Source: Verrucomicrobiia bacterium (GTDB lineage Bacteria > Verrucomicrobiota > Verrucomicrobiia > Limisphaerales > UBA1319). From it: a stretch of DNA of 64,000 nucleotides. The position numbers and the translations under genes were made by a program. Within the stretch, counting starts at the first letter, position 1. The number at the start of each line of letters is the position of its first letter. This document shows, one piece after another, positions 793-62,145 of this stretch. Where the stretch lies: assembly GCA_963664225.1 (NCBI GenBank), contig OY760937.1:32001-96000 (forward strand). The letters are read 5' to 3'. The notes below the pieces were generated by a model, which searched no databases, was not told the DNA's origin, and saw only the letters and a list, made by a program, of their open reading frames with translations.

Positions 793-978
793 GATGTTTC
801 CGCGAATCCCAAGTGTCGGGCCAAACCCGACTGTTTCGCGGAGTGTGGAAATTCCAATGCTTCCAGTGCTTTTCATGTTGCTCTTTGACAAAAACATCGC
901 TCATCGCGATGTCATATTGGCAAGTTCGCGCAAATGGTGTAGAAAGTTTTTGCAGCTCAATCGAAAGAGAGGTCTGCA
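793..978 (+). promoter_or_regulatory. CRISPR leader
   Basis: Non-coding stretch between cas2 stop and first repeat; contains CGCGAA/TTCGCG inverted motifs; the degenerate repeat is at the opposite end of the array. Confidence 0.8.
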
Positions 979-3900
979 GTCACCCCGGTTGAAAAGCCGG
1001 GGTGCGGATTGAAACAACGCGGTGGACCCGCGCATCATGCAGGCGGTGGGTCACCCCGGTTGAAAAGCCGGGGTGCGGATTGAAACTACGATGGTGGTAG
1101 CGATAACAGCTAGTCCACCCAAGTCACCCCGGTTGAAAAGCCGGGGTGCGGATTGAAACCCGTCTTGACCCACCACCCCCTTGAGAGTTTTGGGTCACCC
1201 CGGTTGAAAAGCCGGGGTGCGGATTGAAACACCGCCAAGACGATGGCGACGATAATGGCAGCGGTCGTCACCCCGGTTGAAAAGCCGGGGTGCGGATTGA
1301 AACGCTTCCCTGGCAGTCACCACGGCCTTGGCGCTGGCGGTCACCCCGGTTGAAAAGCCGGGGTGCGGATTGAAACCCCGTTTTCCAATCCGGTGTAGAG
1401 GCAACGGGATGTCACCCCGGTTGAAAAGCCGGGGTGCGGATTGAAACACCTACAAGACCCCGGCTATCATGGCACGGAACCGGTCACCCCGGTTGAAAAG
1501 CCGGGGTGCGGATTGAAACATTGACATAGAAAAAAATAGACCTCATGTCCCCTGTCACCCCGGTTGAAAAGCCGGGGTGCGGATTGAAACACCTCCTCCC
1601 CCCTCTAATTTGAGATTCACCGTCGTCACCCCGGTTGAAAAGCCGGGGTGCGGATTGAAACGTTCCCTTAGATTCCAATGGGGAACACCCTATGCTGTCA
1701 CCCCGGTTGAAAAGCCGGGGTGCGGATTGAAACATCTGTAAATAAATCCACCCCTTCTCATCCGTAATAGGTCACCCCGGTTGAAAAGCCGGGGTGCGGA
1801 TTGAAACACGTCAACCGAAAGCGAAATATCGGTATTGAAACGAGTCACCCCGGTTGAAAAGCCGGGGTGCGGATTGAAACTGATTGTTGGTTCCGGTCAC
1901 ACCGGACGCCACCCAGTCACCCCGGTTGAAAAGCCGGGGTGCGGATTGAAACGACATGCAACTGTGCGTTGGAATGGTTGTCATGTGTCACCCCGGTTGA
2001 AAAGCCGGGGTGCGGATTGAAACAAATATCAATTCCTTGGACAATATGCGCCAGAGATGTCACCCCGGTTGAAAAGCCGGGGTGCGGATTGAAACTGATA
2101 ATCCTCCCATCGATAAAGAATTGGTGCGCGTCACCCCGGTTGAAAAGCCGGGGTGCGGATTGAAACGCATGACAAGCGCGTTCTCTTCGATTGTCATCAC
2201 GTCACCCCGGTTGAAAAGCCGGGGTGCGGATTGAAACTGGAGGTAGTAATAGAGTATCACTTATTTTGTACGAGTCACCCCGGTTGAAAAGCCGGGGTGC
2301 GGATTGAAACGTAACACTCAACTGCAACGCCGCACAACTCACAAGTCACCCCGGTTGAAAAGCCGGGGTGCGGATTGAAACAATGATTCCCTCAAACTCC
2401 GCGTCCGTTCCGAAAAGTCACCCCGGTTGAAAAGCCGGGGTGCGGATTGAAACCAACTCCGCTTCGACCACTTTAAGCTCCGACTCCGCGTCACCCCGGT
2501 TGAAAAGCCGGGGTGCGGATTGAAACAAGCATTTTCGCGGGCATCGACTTTTCCGCATAGCGTCACCCCGGTTGAAAAGCCGGGGTGCGGATTGAAACAC
2601 CATCACAAGGCCGGTGCATGTACACCACAAACGGTCACCCCGGTTGAAAAGCCGGGGTGCGGATTGAAACAGATAATAATCTAGCTTTGTATTGCGTTCC
2701 TCCTCGTCACCCCGGTTGAAAAGCCGGGGTGCGGATTGAAACACCTCCAGTATTGTTTCCAGCATCCAATCCGTGCAAGTCACCCCGGTTGAAAAGCCGG
2801 GGTGCGGATTGAAACACGTCGAACACCGGATTGGTGTTGATCGCATCACGTCACCCCGGTTGAAAAGCCGGGGTGCGGATTGAAACAGCGGGACGGCCAG
2901 TGTGCAGTGCTACGCTTGGGGGTCACCCCGGTTGAAAAGCCGGGGTGCGGATTGAAACTGCCAGTCCGCCGTGCGCATTGAGGATGGGATGGGTCACCCC
3001 GGTTGAAAAGCCGGGGTGCGGATTGAAACTCCATTTACCGGCTGGCAGTCCCTGAGCGGCACGTTGTCACCCCGGTTGAAAAGCCGGGGTGCGGATTGAA
3101 ACCCAAAACCCGCGTTGGTGGTGGTGGCCTCCAGTAGGTCACCCCGGTTGAAAAGCCGGGGTGCGGATTGAAACTCCTTCCACGCCTCCAAATCCGTCAG
3201 CACCTCCACGGGTCACCCCGGTTGAAAAGCCGGGGTGCGGATTGAAACTCCGTAAAATTCAATCCATGTTCCCCCAGCTCCGGTCACCCCGGTTGAAAAG
3301 CCGGGGTGCGGATTGAAACCGCAATGTGGTGGAGGCTTACAAGTCAGAGTTGGGGTCACCCCGGTTGAAAAGCCGGGGTGCGGATTGAAACACGTTCACG
3401 GTTGCAATGGGTGATCCAAACCACACGTCACCCCGGTTGAAAAGCCGGGGTGCGGATTGAAACAACGAGAGTCAGGCGCTTGAAAAAGTGGTCAAGGGTC
3501 ACCCCGGTTGAAAAGCCGGGGTGCGGATTGAAACTTTGAAACTTTCTTTCAAACGGGTTTGGATCAGGGGTCACCCCGGTTGAAAAGCCGGGGTGCGGAT
3601 TGAAACCAGCAAACCAACGAATGGACGCCGCAACTGGAGGAGTCACCCCGGTTGAAAAGCCGGGGTGCGGATTGAAACGTGGTGAATGTGACGTTCCCTG
3701 TAAGACTCAAGGTGTCACCCCGGTTGAAAAGCCGGGGTGCGGATTGAAACGCTTGCTGCAACGTACTGGGGGATTGTCGCGCAAGGTCACCCCGGTTGAA
3801 AAGCCGGGGTGCGGATTGAAACTTGTTAACAGTTTGCACCTTCCGCAGTACGTATTGGTCACCCCGGTTGAAAAGCCGGGGTGCGGATTGAAACGTCACC

Positions 3901-4618
3901 GTCGTCACGTTGGATCCGGCGAGAACAAGTCACCCCGGTTGAAAAGCCGGGGTGCGGATTGAAACACGCGGTGTTCCTCATGGTAGTGGTGTCAATGGCG
4001 TCACCCCGGTTGAAAAGCCGGGGTGCGGATTGAAACAGCCACCATTGGTACCACCAGGCATCCACCTGGCGGTCACCCCGGTTGAAAAGCCGGGGTGCGG
4101 ATTGAAACTTTCCCAAAGTGATGTACGTCTCGGGAATTTCAGGCGTCACCCCGGTTGAAAAGCCGGGGTGCGGATTGAAACGAGAGCAGCGACGCCTCCA
4201 GGATCCCCGCGTCCAACGTCACCCCGGTTGAAAAGCCGGGGTGCGGATTGAAACCATCTTCACCAATGGCGTCATCAATGCCGACGACAAGTCACCCCGG
4301 TTGAAAAGCCGGGGTGCGGATTGAAACATTTTTTGAGCCATCCCGGATCCCACTTGCGTTCCTGTCACCCCGGTTGAAAAGCCGGGGTGCGGATTGAAAC
4401 AAAAGCCCATTAATACCAATCCTAACATGCAAAAGTCACCCCGGTTGAAAAGCCGGGGTGCGGATTGAAACACATCGCCGATTCCATGCTGATTTAACGG
4501 GTTCATGTGTCACCCCGGTTGAAAAGCCGGGGTGCGGATTGAAACTCAATATTCAGACCCCAATACGCCAGTCGTGCACGCGTCACCCCGGTTGAAAAGC
4601 CGGGGTGCGGATTGTTGC
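979..4618 (+). CRISPR. CRISPR array: 51 repeats (last degenerate), 50 spacers of about 34-37 bp
   Basis: 37-bp repeat GTCACCCCGGTTGAAAAGCCGGGGTGCGGATTGAAAC with CACCCCGG/CCGGGGTG hairpin and ATTGAAAC 3' end; period about 72 bp; last copy at 4582 ends GGATTGttgc. Confidence 0.99.
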
Positions 4619-4794
4619 CATGCAATTACGGAGAAGAGGCAAAACCTGATCGTGGCTGAGAGAATTATGGCACACAACTCTTAGGTCATGAAGCGATTTT
4701 TTGATGGCTCTATTCAGAGTCGCTTACGATGAGACATTCAAGGCAGACCGTGATTCGTCCACAAAGTCTTGTCCAACCCTTAAAAACTGTGGTC

Positions 4795-12927: not shown

Positions 12928-12991
12928 GGCGTCCTTAGGTTCCGGATTTATTTCCGCCTTTGCTCGGAATGTGCCGGTGGAAGTGTCTTAA

Positions 12992-13155
12992 ACCCGAAAT
13001 CCGAAATAGGAACGGCCCATCTGACGCAATCATTTGGCCATCCATGGTTTGAAACCGGCTGTGGAGTATTGATTTAATACACCTTCGCCGATTGCAAATC
13101 ATGGCTGTCTCAAAGCATTGCATCGTCTTGACCATTCTTATTTCGGATTTCGGGT
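12992..13155. mobile_element. 164-bp palindromic MITE-like element, copy 1
   Basis: 17-bp perfect TIR ACCCGAAATCCGAAATA/TATTTCGGATTTCGGGT; flanked by TAA (12989-12991) and TAA (15131-15133) once the intron is removed; second copy at 61982. Confidence 0.85.
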
Positions 13156-15130
13156 GTGCGCCAGTGAAATTGGTAGCCTCGTGGGTGAAAGTCCCGCCGG
13201 TCGAATTAGACGGTTCACGACCGAAATGCAGCGTCCGGGACGAGGCCGTGAGGCCGAACCACAAGCGGGACGCTGAAAGAACTGTCGGGTCGTAACGAAA
13301 GTAAACCTCATCAAATGAGCTCCGAAACCGAAATAACCGGTAAGCCGAGCCGCTACCCGAACGGCGAAGGCAGAAACGCGGCGTCATCAAATCGTCAAAT
13401 GGGCGCTGTTGATTCCGGCGGAGTCAGCGAGGGCGACACGACAGGAAGGGAAACCAAGGTAAGCTGGGAGATCTCTGGAGGCGGGGCGATAAAGCCTCAA
13501 CCGCCGGTGCAAGGAGGAACACCCTCCGAGGCCGCACGGGCAGCCAGAGAAGTCGGAGTCTTCCATAGTAGCGAAGAAGCTGGGGCGACCAAAACCCCGG
13601 CGGAGCCAAGGGAAGGCACTTGGATCGAAGCGAATCAAAACAGCGAGGGACAGGGAGATGGCCTTGAGGGAGTGGAAACACTTTTTCAACGGATAACAAC
13701 CCCGATAAAAGTTCAAAAGCTGCAGCGAGCGCTATATTGCAAAGCCAAGGCTGAGCCGAAGTATCGGTTTTACAGCCTCTACGGAGAACTGCTGCGGAAG
13801 GACGTGCTGGAAACGGCAATGGCCTCCGTGGCGCACAACAATGGCGCGGCTGGGATCGACGGGCAGACATGCGACGTCTATCTTGCCAGCGACGAAGCCT
13901 GGGACCAATGGCGGAACCAACTGCTGGAGGAGTTACGCACGAAGAAGTATCGGCCAAGCCCGGTGAAGCGTGTGTATATACCAAAAGGAGACGGGAAGCT
14001 GCGACCCCTGGGCATCCCGACAGTGAAAGACCGGGTGGTGCAGACAGCGGTGGTGATTGTATTGCTGCCGATTCTGGAAGCCGATAGTCATCCGAACAGT
14101 TACGCCTATCATCCCAAACGCAATGCCCACCAAGCAATGGAGGCGATCAAGAAGGCTACGCTGACAGGACGCGTCGAAGTTATAGACGCGGACTTAAGCG
14201 GGTATTTTGACAGCATTCCCCACAGGCGTTTGTTGCGCATAGTGGCCAAGCGGGTCAGCGATGGAACAATTCTCAAGCTGATCGCAGGATGGCTGCGCGC
14301 GCCCGTGAATGAACCGCAAAGCGACACAGGGAAAGGCGGGACAAAGGGGGGGCAAGGTCAGAATCGACGGGGGACTCCGCAAGGCGGGGTTGTATCGCCG
14401 ATTTTAGCCAATGCATACCTCAACCAGTTGGATTGGGAAGTCAACGAACGCTGCGAACTCAAACCCGTGATGGTGAGATACGCGGATGATTTCGTGATAC
14501 TCGGACAGCCGGGGCAGGGACGGGAACTGATGGAACGACTGGAACGATGGCTGAAGCAACGCGAGTTAGTGCTCAACGAGAAGAAGACCCGCTTGGTGGA
14601 CCTCCGCCAGGATGGCATCAAATTCTTGGGATTCGCGCTAACAATGCGACAGGGGAAGGGGAAATGGAAATATCCGCATGTGGAACCCCATCCCAAGAGC
14701 CAGAAGAAGTTTCGAGACGGGATTCGGGAGAAACTCAACCGAAGCACGCTATGGCGTGATATCGGAGAGGTGATTCCCGAGCTCAACAAGAAACTCAAAG
14801 GTTGGAAGGGTTACTTTCACTACGGGAACAGCACCAAGGTGATGGGCCAGATGAACGAATACGTCAGCAGCAAGTTACAACGATGGTTGTGGCGCAAACA
14901 CGGATGTAGTCGGGCGCAATGGTCCACATACCCCAAGGAGGATCTCTATGAGCGTTATGGTTTATACCAAATGCCGGAATATGCGGCATGGAAACGATGA
15001 CGTCGAAGCGATGCAACGTATGATCCCCGGAGAGCCGGATGCGGGAAAACCGCCTGTCCGGTTCGATGAGGGGCGAAATGCGACGGTCATTGGCCACGGC
15101 CATTCAATCCGTCCATTTCGCCTACTCTAC
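13156..15130 (+). mobile_element. Group II intron, copy 1 (complete)
   Basis: 5' GTGCG; domain V GAGCCGGATGCGGGAAAACCGCCTGTCCGGTTC (15032-15064); domain VI ending CCTACTCTAC; RT ORF inside. Confidence 0.95.
13672..15000 (+). CDS. ltrA: Group II intron reverse transcriptase/maturase without endonuclease domain (start uncertain; frame open from 13315)
   Basis: GAAGIDG, RVYIPKGDGKLRPLGIPTVKDRVVQ, DADLSGYFDSIPH, GTPQGGVVSPILAN, RYADDFV, LKGWKGYF; ends with no HNH domain. Confidence 0.95.
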   Translation: METLFQRITTPIKVQKLQRALYCKAKAEPKYRFYSLYGELLRKDVLETAMASVAHNNGAAGIDGQTCDVYLASDEAWDQWRNQLLEELRTKKYRPSPVKRVYIPKGDGKLRPLGIPTVKDRVVQTAVVIVLLPILEADSHPNSYAYHPKRNAHQAMEAIKKATLTGRVEVIDADLSGYFDSIPHRRLLRIVAKRVSDGTILKLIAGWLRAPVNEPQSDTGKGGTKGGQGQNRRGTPQGGVVSPILANAYLNQLDWEVNERCELKPVMVRYADDFVILGQPGQGRELMERLERWLKQRELVLNEKKTRLVDLRQDGIKFLGFALTMRQGKGKWKYPHVEPHPKSQKKFRDGIREKLNRSTLWRDIGEVIPELNKKLKGWKGYFHYGNSTKVMGQMNEYVSSKLQRWLWRKHGCSRAQWSTYPKEDLYERYGLYQMPEYAAWKR

Positions 15131-15213
15131 TAAAAAAAAGAGTGGAAGTAACGGCTTCATAATACCTTCAGCACGACTCGTTCTGTCACCGCAAAGATCC
15201 GTGCATCTGTCAT

Positions 15214-29121: not shown

Positions 29122-32100
29122 ATGTCTGTAGTAAACCTATTGTCACGTTGCTTTGTGAATGGCACCACGGCCACCGTGGGCGTGTGTTTATATCTTGCGA
29201 TCGCCACAACGGCTTCCGCGCAAACCGCTTCGCCAGCCCAGGCGGCGGAGGAGGAGTCTGTGCGGCGCCAGGAGAACACGATTCTCTTGCGCCAACGGCT
29301 GGCGCAAGCGGAGGCCGCCCAAAAGGCGGGCGACAATGCCAGCTCGGCGCGCCTGTTTCAGGAGGCTTATTCATTATCCCAACGCATCGGTGACGTCGGC
29401 GTGGAGAAGGAGACCCAAAGGACGGTTGCCGGATTGTCCGATGTGCAATTGAAGCTCGCGCAGCAGGCACAGAACCAGGGGGATCTGGCCAGCGCGGAGA
29501 CCTGGGTGAACCGGGTGCTCGCCGTGGATCCCAAAAACCAGGCGGCCCAGAATTACAAGAAGACCGTCCTCAAGCTGCGCGAGGCGCAGAAGGGGCGCAT
29601 TCCGAGCGATGAGATGAAGGCGCGCGTGCCCGAGATGGTCACCGAAAAAGTGGCAACCGCCACGCTGGTTCAAGACGGCCGGATGCTGATGGAATGGGGC
29701 AAGCTCGATGAGGCCGAGAAGAAATTGCAGCAGGCCTTTGAGCAGGATGCGGGCAACGCCGCCGCAGTTCACTATTTACGGCTGGTCAAGGAGAAGAAAT
29801 ACGAGCAGGAGGCCCGGCGCCGGAGCATCAGTTCCTCGGACAAGCTGGTTAAAGTCGAGGAGGCTTGGAATCCCCCCACACAAGGGGCTCTGCTTCCTGC
29901 GGCCAATCCTTTTGCGACGACCAATTCGGCCTTCACGGGTCCCGGTCGCCAGATCATTCAGCGCAAGCTTGAGCGGATCAAAATCAACGAGGTCCGCAAA
30001 TTGGAGAACCTGCCGCTGGGTTCGGTGGTGGCTTATTTGAGCGAGGAATCGCGGCTGCGCGATCCTGACAAGGAAGGCGTCAATTTCATTATCAGCACGC
30101 GCATCGACAAGCCGTCTCCCCAGAACCAGCTTCAACAGCAGACGGATCCGGCGACGGGCCTTCCGGTCCAATCGGCCGCGCCGTCTCTCCAGCCCGTGAC
30201 CGATCTGGCCAACGATGTGAATGTGGCTTTTTCGTCTCCGTTGCGCAACATGAGCTTGAGCGACATGCTGCACGCCATCACCCAGGTGGCGCAAGCCTCG
30301 CCGAATATGGAGTTCTACGGTTTGAAGTATTCCATTGAGGAATACGGGGTGGTGATCTCGCAGAAAACCCGCGAACTGGAGCAGTTGTTCAGCAAGCAAT
30401 TCCGGGTGGATCCGAACACCTTCCTGCAGGGTCTGGAAAGCGTCCAATCCATCAATCCCGCCAGTGCCGCCACGGGTGGTAATAATCAGCAAAACGGTGG
30501 CGGCGGCGGCGGTGGTGGATTTGGTGGCGGCCAGGGCGGCCAGGGTGGTTACGGTGGAAGCACCGGCGGTGAGATTCCGCGTGTCACAGTGGCCGCTTAC
30601 GGTGGCAGCCAGAATCAACAAGGCGGCGGCGGATTTGGCGGTGGCGGTGGTGGCGGCTTCGGTGGTGGTGGCGGCGGCTTTGGTGGCGGTGGCGGCATCG
30701 GCGGCGGTGGCGGCCAGGGCGGTTACGGCCAGGGCGGTCTGACGGCGGTGACGCGTCAAACCCAGATGAGCGATGTGCAGACGTTGGTTCGCAATTTCTT
30801 CGCTCAAGCCACGGGAATCTATTTTGCGGGCGCTGGCGCCAATGGCCAGGGTGGTGGCGGCCAGGGCGGTCTGCTTGGTGGCGCCGGTGGTTTCGGCGGC
30901 GGTTTCGGCGGCGGCCAATTTGGTGGCCAGCAGGGACTCCCAGGCCAGGCGGGCACCGGTCAGCAGCAGGGAATCCGAACGATGTTTTTCAATGATCGCA
31001 CGGGTGTCTTGTTTGTCCGGGCGACGATGGAAGAGTTGGATTTGATCGAGCAAGCGGTGCAGGTTTTGAATCTGCCGCCGCCGATGGTCAATCTCGAGGC
31101 GAAATTTGTTGAAATCAGCCAGGAGGATAACAAATCCCTGGGCTTCGATTGGATTCTTGGAAACTTCCTGATGGGTGGGGGTAATGTTGGCGCCCAGGGC
31201 GGCTCGGCCCCATCGTTCAGCGGTTCCCCTTCGGCGGCCAATCCGAGCGGCATTTTCCCGGGTGCGGGTGGTGCGGCGACCACGGCCTCATCGGCTTCAG
31301 ACGGTCTGTTGACAGGCGGTTTGCGCAACAACTCCACAACGGTGGGGACGATTACGGGTATCATGACCGATCCCCAATTCCGATTGGTCATCAAGGCCTT
31401 GGAACAGCGGACGGGTGTGGATGTGATGTCCGCGCCTAATGTGACGACACTCAGCGGTCGCCAGGCGCAGATTCAATCCACGGTGCAGCGTCAGATTTTT
31501 GCCAGTGTTTCCGCTGGAACCGGCGGCAACAATTTCAACAACCAGTCAGGTGGTGGCGTGGGTGGAACGGTGTTGAACCAGGCGGTCTCGCTGTTGCAGC
31601 CGTCCACGGTGCCGTTGCCGACGGGTCCCACACTGGACGTCATTCCTTATGTTTCCGCGGATGGATACACAATTCAGATGACCTTGATTCCGTCGATTCT
31701 GGACTTCCTGGGCTACGGCAATCCTGACATTGCGGATGCCGCCGCGTATGAGGCGACGATTCAGGCGCAAGCGGGTCAATCCCGTTCGCCGGTGCCGCTG
31801 CCGCGCATCCTGGTTCGTCAGATCACGACCTCCGCCACCGTATGGGATGGTCAGACGGTTGTTTTGGGCGGATTGATTTCTGACGATGTGCGCCGGACTC
31901 GGGACAAAGTCCCCGTTCTGGGCGACATCCCATTGCTGGGACGTTTGTTCCGCAGCGAAAGCAGCGGGACGGCCAAGAAGAACCTGGTGGTTTTTGTAAC
32001 CGCGAAGATCATCGATCCGGCTGGAAATCGGGTTCACTCGGAGGACAATCTTCCTTATGATCCGAGCACTCTGCCTGTGCAGAGGCCGATGCCGCTGGCG

Positions 32101-43500: not shown

Positions 43501-46500
43501 TGCCTGTGCCCATCGGAGTGGCCCTGGGTCGCAAGGTGGCCACGGTTAACATAGCCGATGCGGATGTTCCCGATGTGTTTTTCAACTTCAGCACCGCGAG
43601 TTATTTTGCCGATGAAAATGGCGGTGTTGCGCAAATTGCTGTGAATCGCTCGGGATCCTCGGCCGGGCGCGTCTGGGTGAAATACGCCACATCGACGAAT
43701 GCAGCCGGCGGGATTCTCGCTCAGACCGGGCTTAACTACACACCGGTCAGCGGAACGCTGACCTTCGAGTCGGGCCAGACAAACAAGAGCTTTTTGGTGC
43801 CCATTTTGGACAATACCCTGGTTGAGCCGGACAAGGTTTTTGGCCTGGCCATTTCCAACCCGGGCGGGCCGGGAGCGAAATTGGGGACGGTGACCAATTC
43901 GGTGGTGACGATCGTGGATAACGATTACGCCCCGGGTCGTTTGAGTTTCACCGCAACGAATTATTCGAGTCTGGAGAATAGCGGTGCCGCCACGATATCA
44001 GTGCGTCGGCGCGGCGGAAATTTGGGCGTGGTGTCCGCGGACTACTACCTCGCGGATAATACCGCTTTTGCCAATGTGAACTATATGCCGGTGAGCGGCC
44101 ACCTTGAATGGCAAAGCGGCGAATCCGGCGAGAAAAGCTTCGACGTGCCATTGGTCAACAATTCCATTGTCGAAAGTAACAAGACAGTTCGTCTGGTGCT
44201 TACGAATTTCGTGACCGCGCTTCCGGGCACATTTACAAATTCATTGCTCACCATTGTCGATGACGATGCGTTCGGCAAACTGCAGTTGTCGCAGACCACC
44301 GCGCAGGTGTTGGAAAATGAAGGCTCCCTGGTCCTGTACGTGAATCGCATCGGCGGCATTGCCGGCGAGGTGAGCGTGCAGGTGACCACCTCCCCAATCA
44401 CCGCCAGGCCGAATGTGGATTTCGTTCCTTCAACCAATATCGTGACATTGTCATCCGGACAGTTGAGCACGAATGTCACCATCCAGATTTTGGACGATGG
44501 CGCGGCTGGAAACAACCGCACCTTTGCAGTGAAATTGTCGAATCCGGTGAATGCGAGTTTGGGCTCTGTGACCAATACGACCGTCATGATCATCGATCGG
44601 GAATCCTACAATCTGCCTCCCGGCCAGACAGATCCGACCTATGTCAGCGCATCGGGAGCCAATGCCACCATTTACACATTGGGGATGCTGACGAATGGCA
44701 ACTTGCTTGTCGCAGGAGATTTTACGAAATTTAACGGCGCCACGCGCAGCCGCATGGCCCGGTTGCTGCCCAGCGGCGCTCTGGATTCCAATTTCGATGT
44801 TGGAGCCGGCCCCTCGCAATCGGTTCGCACCCTCCTGGTTCAGGATTCGGGGAAGATTTTGATCGGCGGACTTTTCACCAACGTGAGCGGATTCAACCGG
44901 AATTACATTGCCCGATTGAATGCGGATGGTTCGCTGGATATGCAGTTTAATCCGGGCGGCGGCGCGGATAATCCGGTCTATGCGATCCTGACGCAAAACG
45001 ACGGCAAAATTATTTTGGGCGGCGACTTTGCAACTTACAACGGAGTCAATCGCAACCACATTGTCCGTGTGGGCACGGATGGTGTGATTGACACCTCGTT
45101 CGATCCAGGAGCGGGCATTAACGGCACGGTTAACGCGCTGGCCCTGCAGAATGACGGGAAGATCGTGGTCGCAGGCCGGTTTACCAGCGTCGATAATCTC
45201 CAGCAGGTCTCCGTGGCCCGGTTGAATCCGGATGGTTCCGTGGATGGGAGTTTTTCGGTCGGGCTCGGGCCGGATGCGACAGTGCGCGCGCTGGCCATTC
45301 AGAACGACGGACGCATTCTTGTCGGCGGGTTGTTCACTTCGTTCGATGGATTGGCCTCAGGGCGGTTGCAGCGGCTCAATTCGGATGGCTCCGTGGATCA
45401 AACCTTTGTTGCCGGCCTTGGAGCGGACAACGCCATTTACACGATTCTGATCCAGCCTGACGGCAAGATTGTGGTCGGAGGGGACTTTACGATGTTTAAC
45501 GGAGTGGCCCGGAACCGGATCGCCCGGTTGCGCACGGATGGATCGGTGGATCCGACCATCAATTTCGGCAGCGGAGCCAACGGATTTGTCTCCGCGCTGG
45601 CCCTGCAGAGCGATCGGAAGATTCTCCTGGCGGGCGGGTTCACACAGTATAATGACGAGCCTCACGCCTATCTGGCGAGGATCAACGGTGGCGGTTCGGT
45701 GGATGCCGGACAAATGCAATTCAATCTGTCGCACTATTCCGTCCTTGAAACGGGAACGAACGCGGTGATTCGCGTGCTCCGGTCCGGCGGTTCGACAGGA
45801 GAAGTCACGGTCGATTTCGCGACCATCGACGATACGGCCCAAAGCGGCGTGAATTATCTGGGCTTTACCAACACCCTGACCTTTGCCGAAGGGGAGACTT
45901 ACAAAACGGTCACGGTGCCGGTGCTGCATGACAATGTCGCCACGGACGAAAAAAGCCTGAAACTGGCCCTCACCAATCTGACCGGCGGCGCGGTGCTCGG
46001 GCCTCAACCCTCGGCAACATTGTCGATCATCAATGTCGATATGGGGGTAGGCTTTACATCCCAGTCTTACAGTGTGAATGAAGGCGTTGGAAGCGGCCAG
46101 GCGACCATTACGGTGGCGCGGGCGGGGGGAACCAACGGGACGACCTCCGTGGATTTCTACACCCAGGACGGCTCGGCCATCAGCGGGATTCATTACAGGG
46201 CCACTTCTGGAACGATTTATTTCCTGCCCGGGGAATCAGTGAAAACCTTCCCTGTTGGAATTATCGATGAGAAGATCGTGGAGGGCAGCCACACGGTTCT
46301 GCTCTATTTAAGCAATGCCTCGGGCACGACGGCATTAACCACATCCAGCGCGGTGCTGACGATTGTGGATAACGATTTTTCACCGGGAACGCTGCGGTTT
46401 TCAGCCAGCAGCTATACGGTCGGCGAGAAGGGCACCAATGCGGTGATCAGTGTGAGCCGGGTTAACGGCTTCACCGGGATTGTCGCGGTGGATTTCGCGA

Positions 46501-48224
46501 CCAGCAACGGCACGGCAACGGCGGGTGTCAAATATGTGAGGACCGCCACGCGGCTGGCCTTTGCGGATGGCGAAACGTCCAAGACGGTTTTGATTCCAAT
46601 CATCGATGAGAGCGCCGTGGAGGGTGACCAATCGGTCATTCTGACCCTCTCGAATGTCTCCGGCGGAGCGACACTGGGCTCGCCCAGCGTTGTGACGCTT
46701 TCCATTGTCGATGACGATTTCGGACCGGGAAGTCTCGATAATAGTTTTGCAATCGGCGCGGGCGCCAATGCGGCGGTCACGTCTGTGGCGCTGCAACCCG
46801 ATGGGCGCATCGTTCTCGGCGGTTTGTTTACGGCATTTAACAACGCAAGCCGGACGTATCTGGCGCGTTTGAATCTGAACGGTTCGCTCGATGCGGGGCT
46901 GAATCCAACCATCGACGGCGCGGTGAGTTCAGTGGCATCGCTGGATGATGGACGCATTGTGTTTGGCGGAGAGTTTCGCAATGTCAACGGCGCAAGCCGC
47001 AGTTGGGTGGGCCGTCTGGCCACCAACGGGCTGTCGGATCCGGGCTTCTTTGCCTCGGCGGGCATGGATGCCTCGGTCAATATGGTGCTGCCAATGGCTG
47101 GAATGCGCACGGTGGTTGGTGGTAACTTCACCACGCCGGCGGGTCGCGCAATTCGCATCAACGACAATGGCACATTGGATGTGACCTTCAATCCGGATGG
47201 CGGAAGCGATGGTTCCGTGTATGCCGCGGCGCTCCTGCCCGATGGCAGCGTGGTGCTGGGTGGAAGCTTTTCCAGCATGGGCGGTTTGGCGCGCAACGGA
47301 TTTGCCCGTGTGAATGCGTCTGGGTTGATCGAGCCGGGCTATGGCAAAGGCAGCGGCGCGGATGGCCCCGTGTATGCCGTGGCGGCCCAGGCGGATGGCC
47401 GGGTGATTTTAGGCGGAAGTTTCTCATCGATCAACGGTGTGCCTTGTCAGGGCATTGCCCGGTTGCAGAAGAACGGGTCTGTGGATCTGGATTTTGCGGC
47501 GAGGGCATCGGTGAATGGGGCGGTCTATGCCCTGGCGGTCCAGACGGATGGCAAAATCTTTGTGGGCGGTGAATTCACCACAGCCAGTGGCGGGAATCGG
47601 ACACGCTTTGCCCGGCTCAACCGGGATGGTTCCCTGGACACCGCGTTTTTGCCGGGAACCGGCGCGAACGGCCCGGTCTATTCGATCGCCATCCAATTGG
47701 ATGGCAAGGTGGTCATTGCGGGTGATTTTACATCGGTAAGCGGGGCGTCCCGAAATCGCATTGCGCGGTTGCTGGGAGATACGGAGTTTAAGGGTCTGAT
47801 GGGGCAGGCGAGCCTGGTCAATGGACAAAGCTTGCAGCTTTATCTGGCCACGCAACCCGGCGGAGTCTATGCGCTTCAAGCGTCCCAGGATCTGACGAAC
47901 TGGACGAGCCTGAGCACGAATGTCGCCACGGGATCGCCGACGGTCTTTACGGATGCCAGTGTTGCCGGCATAAGCCCGCGGTTCTACCGGGCGCAATGGC
48001 TGGTGCCGTATTTGCTGTCTGTGGATCTGCAAACGAACGGGAGTCTGGTCACCTTCAGCGTTCAGGCAGGTGTGGCCTATGTGATTCAGGCCTCCAATAA
48101 TCAGATCGATTGGGGCACGTTGACCACGAACACTTCCCCAACGACGAAATTGCAGTATTTCGATCGTGGAGCGATTGGCCAGTCGCAACGATATTATCGC
48201 GCGCAGCGGGCCCAGAAGCCGTGA
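40593..48224 (+). CDS. Giant Calx-beta plus Delta-60 repeat surface protein (about 2540 aa)
   Basis: Repeated DY...SGTL.F..G...KT..V.I.DD (Calx-beta) and QPDGKILIGGDFT...IARLN.DGSLD..F (Delta-60); two tandem C-terminal YxxQAS...W...YR domains. Confidence 0.88.
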   Translation: MRKVLSNLVRKWWNKNAMAGIALGMALVCGQNALAQTNTNTTNNASMAGTLQFAAAEYFTSESSTATAGGLNYPGAWITVARTGAFTGRILVDWMTTTNGATAKAGTDYTASTGTLVFDNGQSSAFFVVPITDNTGTSNKVSLSSLVPDLSFSVMLTNARPAAVEDSSLVPAIGSQSTAKVSIQDDDYSFNIQRSDYHVSESDGTVTVTVTLPPGMEAGTVDYQTASSGFNPQPGSAVAIAGVDYESTSGTLDFAAGDTQKTITLTILQNDQAQFNRDFVIRLTNPSIQISSPVTNITVVTNEDGTKSTNSEVADVQTNLPMGRISQAIVTIYNDDPPAGAVDPSFLASSSKNTEPPYNPLPGANSTVNAMAIQNGKVIVGGDFTTFNALSKGRIARLDGVTGELDPTFDAGTGMDGSVGALAVRPDGRIAVGGAFTSISGISRYSLARLLPDGGIDAAFNPGTSINGAVRDLAFTPNGTRLLIAGDFTLVQGRNRNGVARLLDDGSVDNTFDPGLGANGPVYAVLQQPDGKILIGGDFTSVGGQNFDSIARLNADGSLDTSFVGTTVDGAVYSLDQRRQATAAFSGTFNENITGDVTNTVSLGVGQGTISLNYAFGAMTNDTVLSNTLSIYYQGNLVTQRILNATTTNDVIGSLNVSFGPGASGSFDVVVSAQSVPWFYTGTAVSTSGDVGRIVIGGSFTSVNLASRSGLAQLNSDGTLDTTFDPGTAAEDGPVYSVQIGSDGKVYAAGAFTTFNGTQRSGIARTLSNGFLDTSFMDTAFNQYAGLASVTSVDPRPFINAIQLNNNGDVLIGGFFSWVGGNYSQDYYNDTSLYGVTAPGYDFHPDRSTKVARNNFARLKGGSTPGPGNLQFDRENYFVDENGGSVSITAQRLNGTMGSVSLFLTTRDGTALAGEDYKAVTNQTMNWADQSVRNGLLQISIFNDHKAEGDQSFKLVASVPRLSYMNLGGVPVPIGVALGRKVATVNIADADVPDVFFNFSTASYFADENGGVAQIAVNRSGSSAGRVWVKYATSTNAAGGILAQTGLNYTPVSGTLTFESGQTNKSFLVPILDNTLVEPDKVFGLAISNPGGPGAKLGTVTNSVVTIVDNDYAPGRLSFTATNYSSLENSGAATISVRRRGGNLGVVSADYYLADNTAFANVNYMPVSGHLEWQSGESGEKSFDVPLVNNSIVESNKTVRLVLTNFVTALPGTFTNSLLTIVDDDAFGKLQLSQTTAQVLENEGSLVLYVNRIGGIAGEVSVQVTTSPITARPNVDFVPSTNIVTLSSGQLSTNVTIQILDDGAAGNNRTFAVKLSNPVNASLGSVTNTTVMIIDRESYNLPPGQTDPTYVSASGANATIYTLGMLTNGNLLVAGDFTKFNGATRSRMARLLPSGALDSNFDVGAGPSQSVRTLLVQDSGKILIGGLFTNVSGFNRNYIARLNADGSLDMQFNPGGGADNPVYAILTQNDGKIILGGDFATYNGVNRNHIVRVGTDGVIDTSFDPGAGINGTVNALALQNDGKIVVAGRFTSVDNLQQVSVARLNPDGSVDGSFSVGLGPDATVRALAIQNDGRILVGGLFTSFDGLASGRLQRLNSDGSVDQTFVAGLGADNAIYTILIQPDGKIVVGGDFTMFNGVARNRIARLRTDGSVDPTINFGSGANGFVSALALQSDRKILLAGGFTQYNDEPHAYLARINGGGSVDAGQMQFNLSHYSVLETGTNAVIRVLRSGGSTGEVTVDFATIDDTAQSGVNYLGFTNTLTFAEGETYKTVTVPVLHDNVATDEKSLKLALTNLTGGAVLGPQPSATLSIINVDMGVGFTSQSYSVNEGVGSGQATITVARAGGTNGTTSVDFYTQDGSAISGIHYRATSGTIYFLPGESVKTFPVGIIDEKIVEGSHTVLLYLSNASGTTALTTSSAVLTIVDNDFSPGTLRFSASSYTVGEKGTNAVISVSRVNGFTGIVAVDFATSNGTATAGVKYVRTATRLAFADGETSKTVLIPIIDESAVEGDQSVILTLSNVSGGATLGSPSVVTLSIVDDDFGPGSLDNSFAIGAGANAAVTSVALQPDGRIVLGGLFTAFNNASRTYLARLNLNGSLDAGLNPTIDGAVSSVASLDDGRIVFGGEFRNVNGASRSWVGRLATNGLSDPGFFASAGMDASVNMVLPMAGMRTVVGGNFTTPAGRAIRINDNGTLDVTFNPDGGSDGSVYAAALLPDGSVVLGGSFSSMGGLARNGFARVNASGLIEPGYGKGSGADGPVYAVAAQADGRVILGGSFSSINGVPCQGIARLQKNGSVDLDFAARASVNGAVYALAVQTDGKIFVGGEFTTASGGNRTRFARLNRDGSLDTAFLPGTGANGPVYSIAIQLDGKVVIAGDFTSVSGASRNRIARLLGDTEFKGLMGQASLVNGQSLQLYLATQPGGVYALQASQDLTNWTSLSTNVATGSPTVFTDASVAGISPRFYRAQWLVPYLLSVDLQTNGSLVTFSVQAGVAYVIQASNNQIDWGTLTTNTSPTTKLQYFDRGAIGQSQRYYRAQRAQKP

Positions 48225-48268
48225 GCCGGGCAATGATTTGGATGGACACCCTAAAGAGATTGATTTGT

Positions 48269-51200
48269 ATGCGAACTTCGGAAATGAAAGCATTGGTTAA
48301 ATACGGTCGTCCGCAGCTATGGAGCGCGGCCTGTGCGGCGGTTCTTTTGTTGCTCACCGTCGCCGGTTTGCACGCGCAGACCACGAACGTGCCACCCGCC
48401 GTCGTGCAGTTTGCTTCTGCGACATACACTGTGGAGGAGAACACTCCGGGCTATGCCGTGGTCACGGTAAGGCGCACCGGCGATCTCTTCGGCGACATTA
48501 ACTCGGTCGATTATACCGCCACGGACGGGACTGCGGTCGGCGGGATCGACTTTCTGCCTGTCAGCGGGACGCTCGAATTTTTCCCCGGGCAAAATTATCA
48601 GAGCTTCTTTATCTGGATCTTTGACGATTTCATCCAGAACGGCAATCGCACGATCAATTTAACCCTCAGCAACCCGGTTGGCACCAACCTGGTCATGGGC
48701 GCCCAATCCGCGGCCGTGCTGACGATCATCGACGACGAATCCGCAAACAATTATTCCAGCTCGGGCGTGGTCGAAGTGGCCCCTGGCAACTCACTGAATA
48801 TTGGGAGTAACAGAGGAGATTATGAAATCACCCAGGAGGAATGGCGTTGGAGGGATAGTGATGACGGCCCGAGAGGCGCCCAGGTTACGATTGTCCGTCG
48901 CGGTGGAACCAAGGGCAAGGTGCTGGTGGACTTTTATACGACGACCAATATTGTGCCGAGCTATGTTTCCTCGATTTATTCATACTATTACGACTTTTTC
49001 TACGGGTATGCCGGCGGTTATGCGCTTCCGGGTGTCCATTTCATCCCAACCAATGGCACCGTCGCGCTGGAGGACTTCCAGACCAGCACGAACATTTTGA
49101 TCAAAATTCCGCCAATCAGCTATGGACATAATTTTACAACCAACACATTTGGTGTAACCAACGTTGATTTTACCTTCACGATTCCCCCCTCCAGTTTTGG
49201 TGTGGGGTTGACGAATCTGAGGGCAGCGCCGGAAGAGGATCCCAGCCTTATCCAACCCGTCCTTGGTGTCAGTGTGCGTAACGTGAATGTCATTGACAAT
49301 ACGGATGGATTCTCGTTCATCCGAATGCACCACGTTGTTGATGAAGGCGTGGGCATTGCCAATGTCTATGTTTACCGGTCTGCTGATCTCCGTGAAAGCG
49401 TGACGGTGCGCGCCTGGGTCAACGATAGGTCAAGTGGCAGTTCTGAAGGGGACCACCAATGGAATTCCTTCCCGTTGGAGGCGGAGTCGGATTATGCCTC
49501 TGCTTTTCTGGATTACCTTCCGCCGGGCAGCGGCGCTTGGTGGCGTGCCATTACACCCGCCGATCAGTCTCCTGGTTCAGGAGATTGTGTGTTCACCTGG
49601 CCTGCGCTTGATATCGGAGATAACCAAGGATGCAAAGTAATACGCATCCCCATCATTCAAGACAACTTGGTCGAGTTTGCTGAAGACATGAAGATTGAGC
49701 TCTATCAGAGGGAAGGGGATGTGGGCTTTATCAATCAATGGTGCGCGTACTCCACATTAACAATCAAGTTCGACGATCAGGTTGCCGGGGCCGCGGACCG
49801 GGATTTCAACCGTGAAAACGATGCGTTGACCAGCCCGCCGTATAATTTGGTTCCGGGCGCGAATAAACCGGTGCAGGCCATTGTGGTCCAGCCGGACGGT
49901 AAGATTGTCATTGGCGGTGATTTTACCGCGTTCAATACGACGCCTCGCAATTCGATTGCCCGTGTGAACCAGGATGGTCAGCTCGACACCTCGTTCAACC
50001 CCGGTCTTGGAGCGGACAACTATGTCAGCGCCGTGGCCTTGCAGCCGGATGGGCGGATACTGATTGGCGGCGGATTTACTTCCGTGAACGCCTCCTTGCG
50101 GTATGGCATTGCCCGTTTGCTGCCCAATGGTGCGGTGGATCCCACCTTCAATCCCGGGATTGGAGCGGATGGTCCCGTGCGCGCCGTTTCCTTGCAGTCC
50201 GACGGCAAGATTCTGATCGGTGGCGAGTTTATTTACTATAACGGAACCAATCGCAATTATCTCGCGCGCCTGAACTCGGATGGTTCGCTCGATACGACCT
50301 TCGATCCGGGTGACGGTCCCAATGGTCCCGTGTATTCGATGGCATTGACGGCAGGAGCCATGAATATCAACCGACAGGCGTCCGGTGGACAGGCCGAAGA
50401 CCGGTTTCCTGTCGATAGCGGCAGCATGCAGGGATCGATCACCGTAACTTATGATTTTCTGACCATACCGGATACCCTCCGTATTTATAATGGAAACGAT
50501 CTGCTTCTGGACACGGGTTTGATTAACGGGGTCGGCACGGTCACGGTTCCCTACTCCGGTTCGAGCAGCTACCTGACGGTTGTGATCAACGAAGGAAATA
50601 ATTCCTCCGAGGGTACGCAATGGCGTTACTCCCTGGCCATTAATCCCGTGGTGGATGAGCGTCCTGTCATCGGAGGTAATTTTACATCCTTCAATGGAAT
50701 CGAGATGAACTATGTGACCCGGCTGAATCCCGATGGGTCCGTGGATCAGAGCTTCACTCCTGGAACTGGACCGGACGACGTGGTGTATGCCGTGGCCAAG
50801 CAGGGTAACAAGGTGGTCATCGGCGGCGCCTTTACATCCGTTGACATTCGCAATCGGCGCGGTGTGGCGCGTTTGAATGAGGATGGCACGCTGGATACCA
50901 CCTACGACACGGGTTCCGGCACCGATAACACGGTTTATTCGATCACGGTGCAGGCCAACGGCCAGGCCGTGCTGGGCGGTGTCTTCAATGCGTTCAACGG
51001 CACTCGGCGCATCGGTTTGCTGCGGTTGAATCTGGACGGCACCCTGGACACCTCCTTCATGGACACGGCGTATAATCAGTTCGCCGGTGTGATTGCTCCG
51101 TTAAGCAGGGAGAATCCTTTAACGCAGCCGAACTTCATTTCGGCCGTGGCCCCGTACCGCCAGACCAGCGCGTCGGTCTTTGTGGTGACCAACATCACGA

Positions 51201-54200
51201 CGGCAGGCGAGACCAACTTCAGCTATGTCACAAACTACACTTACGCGGACTATGTTTATGTGGGTGGTCTCTTCAAGCGCATGGGCGGTGGTTACGATCG
51301 TAACAACGAACTCTCGCGGTATAACTTCGCCCGTGTGATCGGCGGCGCAACACCCGGACCGGGCAATATCCAATTCGCCGCGCCCAATTATACCATCGAT
51401 GAAAACGGCGGACGGATTTATATCACCATGGTTCGCACCAACGGAAGTTTGGGGGCTATTGCCGCCAATGTCGCCACTCTCGATCCGCCTGCGGGACCCG
51501 GTGTGGCCGTGGGTGGCCGGGATTACTACAGCACGAACAGGAATGTGGCCTGGACCTCGACCTACGGACAAGGTTGCGGAGACGACCGCCAGGTCAGTTC
51601 AGCGCGCATGGGACCCAGCAACCGTACTGTGGATACGAACCAGGCCTTGTGCGATTTCGATCCCCATGCCGATGGTTTTGCGCCAGCCCGGTTTTCCAAT
51701 CCTGACAGCGATGATTTCTTTGTGACGATGATTGACAATTCAACCATCGATGGAGACCGGGTGCTCAATCTCAAGATCACCCAGCCAACATCCACGCTGA
51801 CCCTGGGCGGCATCCCGATTCCCTTGGGATTTGCCCTCGGAAAAGTGGACGCCACTTTGAACATTGTGGATAACGATATGATCCCGGGAACGCTCGGGTT
51901 CAGCACCAAATTTTATTCCATCATAGAAAATGGGAAAAGGGCGGCGATCGGTGTTACACGCGTGGGAGGATCGGGTGGAGACGTTTCCATTGCTTATACC
52001 ACGAGCGATGGAACGGCGAAGGCGCGCAAGGATTACACCGCGACGCAAGGACGGCTCTATTTCGCCTCCGGCCAAACCACAAACACGATCTATGTGCCGA
52101 TCATCGACAATGCGATCGCTGAACTGGACAAAACGATCAACCTGACACTGTCCGATCCATCGGGCTTCCCGGCGAACTGGCCCGTCAGCGCGCGCCTCGA
52201 TCCGAACAGGGCCACTTCCGTCCTCAGCATCATCGATGATGATTTCGCGCCCGGACGCATGAGTTTTCTGCAACCCGACTTCACGGTCGGAGTGAACGAC
52301 GGGACGGCCACAATCACCGTCAAGCGCAGTGGAGGCGCTCTGGGAGATCTGCGGGTGTCTTTTGCCACAAGCGATGGCACGGCCGTCAACGGCGTGAACT
52401 ACCTCGGAACCAATGGAACACTGTTCTGGGTGGACGGGGATATTAGTCCGAAGACCTTCACAGTGCCCATCCTGAACAATTTCGAGGTTGGCACGAATCG
52501 GACGATCAACATCGCCCTTTCAAATTCGTATGTGAACAATCAGTTCAACACGAACGCGCTGGGGTTGACGAGCGCCACGCTGACCATTCAGAACAATAAC
52601 TCGTATGGCGTGCTGGGCTTCAGCCGGCCCGCCTACGTGGTGGATGAAAAGAGCGCGCAAGCGATTGTCACGGTTCTACGCTCCGCCGGTTTGTCCGGCA
52701 TCATCAGTGTCGATTATACGACGGCGAATGTGAATGCGACGGCGGGTGTGAATTACCGGACGGCACGCGGGACATTGACCTTTGGCGTCGGCGAAGCCAG
52801 CAAGACGTTTGTTGTGCCGATATTGGACGATGGCGTGCTGACGGGCGACAAGGTGCTGCGTTTGAGTTTGTCGAACGCCGTGGTCGTTGCCCTTGGAACC
52901 AATTCTCCCTCGCTGATGGGATATCAATCCACGGCGCAGGTGACCATTGTGGATCGGGAGCTGTCCAACACGCCTGCGGGATCGCTGGACCGGTCGTTTG
53001 TTTCGGCTGAAGGCGCCGACGGCTTCATCTATGGTCTGGCACTTCAGGCGGACGGTAATTTACTCCTGGGTGGCGATTTCACCAAGATCAACAGCGTTAA
53101 CAAGAATCGGGTGGCGCGGCTGACCACGGCTGGAGCCCTGGATTTCAGTTTCGACGTTGGCTCCGGGCCCAATGGCTCCGTGCGCAGTATTCAGGTTCAA
53201 AACGACAACCGGATTCTGGTGGGCGGATTGTTCACCACCTTCAATAACATCAACCGAAATTACATTACGCGGTTGAACGTGGACGGTGCCAACGATCCGA
53301 CATTCAATCCCGGAGCGGGCGCTGATAATCCGATCTATGCAACCGCTTTGCAGGACGATTCCCGCATTCTTGTGGGTGGCGATTTCGCCACATTCAACGG
53401 TGTAAGCCGCCGTCATATCGCGCGCTTGAACACGAACGGTGTGGTCGATGTGACCTTCGATCCGGGCATCGGCACAGATGGCAGCATCTATGCCCTGGCT
53501 GTTCAGCCGGACGGGAAAATACTCATTGCAGGTGACTTTAACACCTATAACAACCAGGCCATCAAACGGATTGCGCGGTTGAACTCCAACGGCGCGCTGG
53601 ATGCGAGCTTTAATCCCGGCGTTGGAGCCAACGCGGCCATTCGCGCCCTCTGCCTTCAGAGCGATGGAAAGATGCTCATCGGCGGGTTGTTCACCAACGT
53701 GAGCGGGATCGCCCTGTCCGCTGTGGCGCGCTTGAATAGCGACGGCACGGTGGATTCAGCCTTCCACCCCGGAGCGGGCGCCGACAATGCCGTCTATACC
53801 ATCGCGCTTCAGGACGATGGCAAGATTGTGTTGGGCGGAGATTTCCTGCACTTCGGCGGCATCAATCGCAGTCGCCTGACGCGTTTGAATCCCGATGGCA
53901 CACCCGATCCGACCATCAATATTGGAACCGGCGCAAATGCGTTTGTGTCCTCCCTTCTGGTGCAGCCAGACCGGAAGATTGTGTTTGTCGGCGGGTTCAC
54001 CAGTTTCGACGGCAATCCCAAGAAATACATCGCGCGCATCGAAGGCGGGGCGATGGCCGATAGCGGGAGTCTTGAGTTCAGCAGTTCGATTTACCGGGTC
54101 ATGGAAAACGAGACCAACGCCGTGGTCACCGTGCGCCGCACCGGTGGAACACTGGGCCAGGTTTGGGTCAATTATGAGACGTTATTGGCTGGCTCGGCCA

Positions 54201-61511: not shown

Positions 61512-61982
61512 ATGCATCCGACCCTCTGGCTTCGCGCGAAGACCGAGCGGCTTTTTCGAATCAAGGACACGCCGCACGCCCTGGCGCTCGGTGTGGCCGT
61601 GGGGATCTTCTTTGGATTCGTTCCGCTGGTGGGACTTAAGACTTTGCTCGCGCTCGGTGTCACGCGGTTGTTGCGCGGCAACTTGCTGGCGGCGGCGATA
61701 GCGGTAACGCTGCATGACGTGATGCTTCCGCTCGCACCGCTTTTGCTGCGCTGGGAATACGATCTCGGCTTTTGGATCTTGAGCCATCCGCACGCGTTCC
61801 CGCCACGCCTTCATTTGATCCATCAAAGTCCGTCCGCCTGGCTCCACTGGTCCACCTTTTTAACCGTGGGCCGACCGTTGCTGGTCGGCTCCATGGTGTT
61901 CGCCGTGCCTTTTGCGCTCGCAACGTATTATCTGACGCTCTGGTGGGTCAACCGCAGGCGTCGGAGGGATGTTGCGGTTTAA
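61512..61982 (+). CDS. DUF2062-family membrane protein
   Basis: IKDTPHALALGVAVGIFFGFVPLVG...RGNLLAA...EYDLGFWIL...PLLVGS. Confidence 0.8.
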   Translation: MHPTLWLRAKTERLFRIKDTPHALALGVAVGIFFGFVPLVGLKTLLALGVTRLLRGNLLAAAIAVTLHDVMLPLAPLLLRWEYDLGFWILSHPHAFPPRLHLIHQSPSAWLHWSTFLTVGRPLLVGSMVFAVPFALATYYLTLWWVNRRRRRDVAV

Positions 61983-62145
61983 CCCGAAATCCGAAATACG
62001 AATGGTCAAGATGATGCAATGCTTTGAGGCAGCCATGATTTGCAATCGGCGAGGGTGTATTAAATCAATACTCCACAGCCGGTTTCAAACCATGGATGGC
62101 CAAATGATTGCGTCAGATGGGCCGTTCCTATTTCGGATTTCGGGT
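61982..62145. mobile_element. 164-bp palindromic MITE-like element, copy 2 (inverted relative to copy 1)
   Basis: Reverse complement of 12992-13155 with 4 substitutions counted by eye; same 17-bp TIRs; preceded by TTA. Confidence 0.85.

Follow-up and report, generated by a model that had tools for sequence, protein, structure and literature searches.

Probable retrohoming of an endonuclease-less group II intron to the outer tips of IS1380-family elements in a Verrucomicrobiia genome

Why should two copies of a group II intron start directly behind the last base of a transposon end, and at opposite ends of that transposon? The question is raised by a 64,000-nt stretch of the genome of a Verrucomicrobiia bacterium (GenBank assembly GCA_963664225.1), hereafter the window, which covers positions 32001-96000 of the single 5.78-Mb contig OY760937.1 and carries the intron beside two copies of a miniature inverted-repeat transposable element (MITE). 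Very probably, this is an active group II intron without endonuclease that retrohomes to one 14-nt site, where the tip of a transposon meets the target-site duplication. A preliminary description of the window had proposed homing to a multi-copy transposon-end sequence by pairing of exon-binding sites (EBS) with intron-binding sites (IBS), and the 5´ exon common to 19/19 genomic copies bears this out. The intron and its main parts have the following window coordinates.

13156-15130, + strand: group II intron copy 1, 1975 nt, GTGCG...CTAC (RF02005, 54.9 bits; RF00029, 49.3 bits).
62146-64000, + strand: group II intron copy 2, truncated by the window boundary; its last base is genome position 96120.
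15030-15130, + strand: domains V and VI, with domain V at 15032-15064 (RF00029, 49.3 bits; gathering score 40).
13660-15000, + strand: intron-encoded reverse transcriptase/maturase (Pfam RVT_1, 1e-34; GIIM, 7e-14).

Both copies open with GTGCG, at 13156 and at 62146, and the Rfam family group-II-D1D4-6 (RF02005) matches 13188-13433 and 62178-62423 (54.9 bits, gathering score 49). The GTGCG start and the Rfam domain matches thus delimit the intron as the 1975 nt at 13156-15130. The RNA combines the elements of a mobile group II intron ribozyme, namely a 5´ GUGYG, a domain I-IV core, domain V, and a domain VI with a bulged A. The reading frame of the intron protein is open over 13315-15000; the in-frame GTG at 13672 is a candidate start. 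The translation contains YADD and scores 357 bits against TIGR04416 (group II reverse transcriptase/maturase; cut-off 300). A Pfam search of the protein returned RVT_1 and GIIM alone, with no endonuclease domain, and the C-terminus lies ~25 residues past GIIM. The best tblastn matches of the protein among plasmids were ~40% and annotated ltrA. No close copy was found in a search of 40 kin genomes, in which repeats are frequently unassembled, as is usual for such drafts; the best matches, some of partial length, were 40-59% in 4 genomes. The occurrence of 19 identical copies in the genome suggests that the intron splices and is active at present. The genome also contains two other families of group II introns: a four-copy family (1677061-1678290, 2329700-2330929, 5161940-5163169 and 5604340-5605569), whose protein is 43-44% identical to that of the intron described here, and a single-copy one (2135766-2135996).

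The transposon side of the junction comprises the following features in the window.

12992-13155, + strand: MITE copy 1, 164 bp, no open reading frame (ORF), arms at 12992-13036 and 13111-13155.
61982-62145, - strand: MITE copy 2, inverted relative to copy 1 and 98% complementary to 12992-13155.
12989-12991, + strand: left target-site duplication TAA of MITE copy 1, equal to the TAA at 15131-15133 after intron removal.
15131-15133, + strand: right target-site duplication TAA, the first base of which is IBS3 (+1 = T).
61979-61981, + strand: left target-site duplication TTA of MITE copy 2, equal to the TTA after intron copy 2 (genome 96121, past the window end).
12992-13008, - strand: empty intron target at the other MITE tip (genome 44992, - strand).

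The 17-mer TATTTCGGATTTCGGGT occurs four times in the window, compared with 0.02 expected, at 12992-13008 (-), 13139-13155 (+), 61982-61998 (-) and 62129-62145 (+). The terminal inverted repeats of the MITE are imperfect and 45 nt long, with arms that are 78-80% pairable and outer 17 nt that are identical. The element is short, non-coding and multi-copy (~22 genome copies at 92.7-100% identity), is bounded by terminal inverted repeats and a TWA (TTA or TAA) duplication, and has the tip ACCCGAAnTCCGA in common with a 1534-bp insertion sequence (IS), all of which define it as a MITE. The IS is present in five identical genome copies and encodes a 472-residue transposase that matches NF033539 (IS1380 family; 227.2 bits, cut-off 180) and PF13701 (95.7 bits); the genome has five IS1380-type transposase genes, every one in this IS. 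On account of the common tip, the MITE is probably mobilised by the IS1380-type transposase. The preliminary description had taken the carrier of the intron to be a MITE, which is right for the 164-bp element, but the parent IS1380-family IS also carries the intron.

The exact boundary between element and duplication can be drawn in two ways. IS1380 elements have CC...GG ends and a 4-5 bp duplication. The junctions are compatible either with ACCCG...CGGGT ends and a 3-bp TWA duplication or, in the manner usual for IS1380 elements, with CCCG...CGGG ends and a 5-bp TTWAA duplication. Either scheme also accommodates a nested insertion into a MITE. Under the 5-bp scheme the intron lies one base into the duplication; under either scheme the whole end repeat is on one side of the intron. 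The MITEs themselves have been hit by other elements: the copy at genome 264553-266581 is split in its centre by an unrelated ~1860-bp element, which has five further near-identical genome copies and ends GCACTTTACCCC..., and the central TTAA of the MITE was also hit twice by the IS1380-type element (genome 828086 and 2984736).

A BLAST search of the genome found 19 intron copies, each identical over 1975/1975 positions, and no fragments. All 19 loci have unique flanks beyond a common context, in which ...TCGGA[T/G]TTCGGGT precedes the intron and T(T)AA follows it in 19/19 copies; when the 5´ flanks were tabulated, no unrelated flank appeared. The 13-mer TCGGANTTCGGGT occurs at 51 genome sites (both strands), all of which resemble transposon ends, and 19 of them are filled. 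None of the 63 sites with 1-2 mismatches to the 13-mer contains the intron. Of the filled sites, 13 are at MITE ends, split 8 to 5 between the two end types; the 1534-bp IS accounts for four, three of them at its right end and one at its left; and the last two are lone sites with a match of 13-16 nt and no recognisable element around them. When the intron was conceptually removed, matching TTA or TAA duplications were restored at 18/19 complete elements. The transposon therefore inserted first and the intron later, between the end repeat and the duplication. This agrees with the preliminary description, in which the intron was held to begin right after the last base of the MITE end repeat and to leave the MITE and host genes uninterrupted.

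The two window MITEs are reverse complements at 98%, and the sequence after both runs in the same direction; therefore, opposite MITE ends were used at the two loci. The opposite orientations and the differing flanks likewise sustain the earlier view that the loci did not arise by block duplication. The intron contig depth relative to the unique flanks corresponds to ~20x (427 vs 20.7) and ~13x (157 vs 12) in two contig runs, which shows that the multiplicity of the intron is no product of the assembly. The depth check drew on four runs with contigs of DNA-like depth, and the best-matching run may be that of the source sample. Contigs of all four runs also contain a MITE variant that lacks 101 nt and has 8 other letters instead (window 13033-13135). 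A shorter MITE derivative therefore exists, and the short copies at genome 3284306 or 4325638 are probably examples of it.

How the intron finds this site was deduced from its pairing with the 5´ exon, which involves four segments.

13149-13155, + strand: IBS1, exon -7 to -1, TTCGGGT, the tip of the MITE end repeat, identical in 19/19 copies.
13355-13361, + strand: EBS1, ACCCGAA, in the terminal loop of the hairpin 13349-13365 on a domain I stem (Rfam alignment, covariation).
13138-13146, + strand: IBS2, exon -18 to -10, TTATTTCGG, core -13 to -10 TCGG, nine contiguous pairs with 13328-13336.
13328-13336, + strand: EBS2, CCGAAAUAA, in the 5´ internal loop of the domain I stem (covariation).

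Relatives of the intron protein were gathered from genome and metagenome contigs. Thirteen relatives with 71-84% protein identity were obtained, five of them with 77-79% DNA identity over the full length. Ten have a 5´ exon, these exons differing mutually and from that of the window, and one contig begins at the intron. The alignment used for covariation comprised the window intron and the ten relatives (11 sequences) at a mean column identity of 87%. The EBS1 loop is closed by a GCCG/CGGC stem (13349-13352 / 13362-13365), as the preliminary description had already seen. IBS1 and EBS1 are paired in 97.4% of cells, with compensatory changes in 5/7 pairs, and the EBS1/IBS1 combinations in relatives include ACCUGAA/TTCAGGT, CCACGGA/TCCGTGG, GCAUCCA/TGGATGC and GCGUCAA/TTGACGC. 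Pairing between exon and loop with changes on both sides establishes EBS1, and its position at 13355-13361 is proven by covariation in 10 relatives.

The internal loop that holds EBS2 is the most variable stretch of the alignment. The EBS2 core is paired with exon -10 to -13 in 7-11 of the 11 sequences, with compensatory changes in 4/6 pairs. The observed covariation was reached by 0/500 shuffles and breaks down once the partner is shifted by 1-3 columns. At the IS ends and the two lone sites, 4-7 of the nine EBS2 pairs are retained. IBS1 and IBS2 are separated by a 2-nt linker (exon -8 and -9), and T is found at +1 in 19/19 intron copies. EBS2 had previously been assigned to 13321-13327 (TCCGAAA), 7 nt upstream of its present position. 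That segment pairs with the exon in 39% of cells, shows no compensatory change and overlaps a conserved helix (13319-13324 / 13419-13424) that is paired in 100% of cells with a U-A to C-G swap, and the assignment was abandoned. A second candidate EBS2, in the hairpin at ~13395-13405, matched one relative alone (by eye) and was dropped.

The relatives also provide a view of other insertion sites. Among seven relatives with at least 150 nt of flank, an inverted repeat ends at the insertion site in two and in none of the other five. Relative L032 lies at the outer end of a 75-nt inverted-repeat element and L111 at that of one of ~150 nt. Both come from other phyla, their element sequences are quite different, and EBS1 has co-evolved to match. 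Their positions at outer ends of inverted-repeat elements hint at a lineage-wide habit rather than an accident. Two further observations concern these contigs. In the metagenome contigs L107 (2082/2083, 114/115) and L109 (1473/1474), the intron 3´ end is directly joined to its own 5´ end, which could reflect head-to-tail tandem copies, an arrangement reported for the rhizobial intron RmInt2, or else intron circles or circular assembly of the repeat. The 5´ exons of L111 (1958-1997), L116 (232-271), L115, L029 and L031 contain two direct 8-9-nt repeats ending GTGGTT, ~10 nt, and then TTTTCAGGT. This common architecture looks like the end of another small repeat-element family in other phyla.

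Every complete element offers two identical tips, and the distribution of the intron between them follows the chromosome. Between 2.99 Mb and 0.95 Mb, across the contig ends, the intron copies are on the + strand, and those at 1.66-2.19 Mb are on the - strand; dnaA is located at 2.99 Mb (genome 2990590-2991069). The best '-' arc spans 1.48-2.52 Mb by GC skew and 1.27-3.29 Mb by gene orientation. The 8-mers that are strand-biased outside 1.2-3.8 Mb change sign between 1.5 and 2.5 Mb and are near zero at 2.5-3.6 Mb. When the local skew was calculated from 15 such 8-mers within +/-75 kb, with 4 of the 51 sites dropped as ambiguous, 19/25 co-oriented sites were filled compared with 0/22 anti-oriented sites (p = 2.6e-8). 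The GC-skew arc gave 19/26 vs 0/25 (p = 1.7e-8), the gene-orientation arc 18/28 vs 1/23 (p = 7.2e-6), and removal of ambiguous zones (8 sites dropped) 18/23 vs 0/20 (p = 1e-7). No element has both ends filled, and in an IS that is inverted in a '+' region the intron is at the other end. The two targets per element claimed earlier thus exist by sequence, yet filling is confined to the end that lies on one of the two replication strands.

The filled strand is the G-rich strand and, with the replication direction that we infer, it is the parental template for lagging-strand synthesis. An occupancy bias of this kind, towards the lagging-strand template, is characteristic of introns without endonuclease. 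The upstream ORF is co-directional with the intron in 9/19 copies (crude ORF set), and neighbouring-gene orientation is therefore no explanation of the bias. By the same count, the suggestion of read-through from the upstream gene was unsupported. The inferred replichores measure ~1-1.7 Mb vs ~4 Mb. At genome 2984654-2988329, ~2-6 kb from dnaA, a MITE is split by the IS, which has the intron at its end; this nested MITE/IS/intron stack is possibly in or beside the replication origin.

These observations can be combined into the following mechanism. The intron would recognise the 14-nt site 5´-TCGG A N TTCGGGT / T-3´ (the slash marks the insertion point), a sequence present only where the IS1380-family IS or the MITE meets its TWA duplication. 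As the covariation shows, EBS1 pairs with -1 to -7, the tip of the end repeat, and EBS2 with -10 to -13, or as far as -18 in the MITE; the +1 T is provided by the target preference of the transposon itself. Insertion would proceed without endonuclease via the lagging-strand-template pathway, with lagging-strand priming as the presumed mechanism. Such a pathway would explain why one of two identical ends is filled, following the replication direction. With the intron outside the end repeat, the transposon should remain structurally whole, and every new transposition would add two empty target sites, of which one is on the strand that the intron can use. A broader proposal, that the lineage is specialised for the junction of transposon tip and duplication and that the IS and MITE are still mobile, which would make this a self-renewing system of two parasites, is possible but on balance doubtful.

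Several points weigh against retrohoming as described. EBS2 pairing in the relatives is partial (66.7% of cells), EBS3 was not located, with a single relative differing in the +1 base, and the conservation of -9 to -13 within the genome is no proof that the intron needs these positions, since all target sites are homologous transposon ends. The element at genome 5610955 has unequal flanks, TTA and TAA. The origin and terminus are deduced, the replichores are very unequal, and the strand signals are near zero at 2.5-3.6 Mb; the copy at 2.986 Mb is anti-oriented under the gene-orientation arc. The strand bias could stem partly from selection after insertion and not from the insertion mechanism. 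No RNA run containing the locus was found among 6 RNA runs listed, each with 5-7% of words, and a sigma-70-like promoter scan of both window loci gave 0 sites in or beside the MITE.

Could transposon and intron instead move together, without any homing? ISEcp1 mobilises adjacent DNA via a surrogate end by the one-ended transposition of the IS1380 type, and the IS here is of the same family. If element and intron formed one such unit, the duplication would flank all of it, and TWA duplications around [element + intron] would be equally expected. Joint movement does not account for an intron that occurs at either MITE end (8 and 5) and both IS ends, at an end that tracks the replication strand and not element polarity, and in two copies at lone 13-nt sites without a recognisable element. 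Moreover, the intron 3´ end (...CGCCTACTCTAC) is unlike the end repeat, the MITE copies show differences of up to 7%, compared with 100% identity among those of the intron, and both EBS1 and EBS2 are complementary to the exon and change together with it in relatives. We regard movement as a unit as highly improbable. A different reading keeps homing but has the intron read a DNA hairpin formed by the MITE inverted repeats, in the manner of class C (IIC) introns, rather than the tip sequence. The MITE arms can indeed pair (45 nt, 78-80%), and L032 and L111 are at ends of inverted-repeat elements (75 nt and ~150 nt). This reading is scarcely credible, as four copies are at ends of the 1534-bp IS with arms 1.5 kb apart and two are at lone sites, the 7-bp EBS1 and EBS2 both covary with the exon, and 5/7 relatives with sufficient flank have no inverted repeat ending at the insertion site.

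Selection may be invoked for the strand asymmetry alone, with base-pairing targeting accepted and collisions or antisense effects, not lagging-strand priming, removing copies from one strand. The occupancy data are a standing distribution, not insertion events, in which mechanism and selection are not fully separable, and the genes of this genome are biased to the same strand. We nevertheless consider this source of the asymmetry improbable: all copies are identical, which points to recent insertion and little time for selection; for insertions that are intergenic and lie just outside a MITE, 0/22 is an extreme value; and the orientation of neighbouring genes is unbiased (9/19). In addition, the protein has no endonuclease, and plasmid data in PMC4615759 show the same bias for the introns RmInt1 and RmInt2. 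Segmental duplication or assembly collapse of a repeat, which the identity of the two window introns might suggest, has almost no chance of being correct, given that the two MITEs are in opposite orientation and 98% rather than 100% identical, that flanks and duplications (TAA vs TTA) differ, that all 19 loci are uniquely flanked, and that contig depth indicates ~13-20 copies.

Retrohoming by base pairing to the transposon tip is thus the reading retained, and it makes the genome a natural data set: of 51 target sites in both orientations, most on one replication strand are filled and none on the other. The intron also explains a class of repeat that breaks assemblies, and it provides a rule for annotation, namely a 1975-nt insert directly outside the tip TTCGGGT.

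The window has other features as well. A CRISPR (clustered regularly interspaced short palindromic repeats) array at ~978-4700 contains ~51 copies of GTCACCCCGGTTGAAAAGCCGGGGTGCGGATTGAAAC, a 37-nt repeat that recurs every 71-74 nt. Diverged families of 43-95-nt direct repeats extend over ~11 kb at 43900-55300; very large genes for surface proteins with repeated domains are their probable source. A GGC/GGT-rich repeat tract at 30498-30938 is probably a glycine-rich coding region.

Three groups of known introns invite comparison. Class C (IIC) introns insert after terminator hairpins or attC sites and have a short IBS1 and no EBS2. The intron described here resembles them in its intergenic insertion beside a palindromic structure and in its missing endonuclease, but differs in its 7-bp EBS1, its covarying EBS2 and its independence of a hairpin, as seen at the 1.5-kb IS ends and the lone sites. 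The natural site of RmInt1 of Sinorhizobium meliloti lies inside a transposase gene. Likeness to RmInt1 in ISRm2011-2 (PMC8914252) includes an endonuclease-less IIB-type intron, pairing from -13 to +1, the lagging-strand-template preference, and an IS as the homing site. RmInt1 is inside the IS with one site per IS, whereas the present intron is at the tip.

The closest parallel is RmInt2 of S. meliloti GR4. PMC4615759 (2014) reports seven identical copies, all located in the inverted repeats of ISRm17, where each IS offers one site on either replication strand, and a lagging-strand bias in plasmid assays. It also gives a -8/-9 linker of 2 nt and homing with just four EBS2 pairs, and the authors state there that inverted repeats double the number of sites and guarantee one on the lagging strand. 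The lagging-strand-template pathway of endonuclease-less introns is described in both PMC8914252 and PMC4615759. The present intron is like RmInt2 (class D / IIB3) in having no endonuclease domain, identical copies, the lagging-strand-template preference, the 2-nt linker and a tolerance of EBS2 pairing as short as 4 bp, as well as in the use of IS end repeats as targets with two opposite-strand sites per element. In contrast, the two proteins are 28% identical over 410 residues, and the intron here matches RF02005 and RmInt2 matches RF01999; a separation from class D would be based on this identity to one protein and on the different Rfam D1-D4 family. The host IS of RmInt2 is of the ISNCY type, whereas the host here is of the IS1380 type, mainly its MITE. 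RmInt2 is inserted within the ISRm17 repeat and splits it, leaving 20 nt beyond the intron (one locus compared); the intron here does not, and its repeat is whole on one side. RmInt2 has 7 copies, compared with 19 here, and is known from experiments, whereas the present intron is known from sequence alone.

The strategy of homing to end repeats is thus already published for RmInt2 in ISRm17, and the mechanism has so far been shown mainly with rhizobial class D introns. Searches of open-access text found no report in which the homing target of a group II intron is a MITE or the end of an IS1380 element. What is new here is an apparently unrelated endonuclease-less lineage, an IS1380-type element together with its MITE, and an insertion point on the outer side of the end repeat. 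The habit of targeting such repeats thus appears to have emerged in an unrelated lineage of introns and with another IS family as host, and it extends to MITEs.

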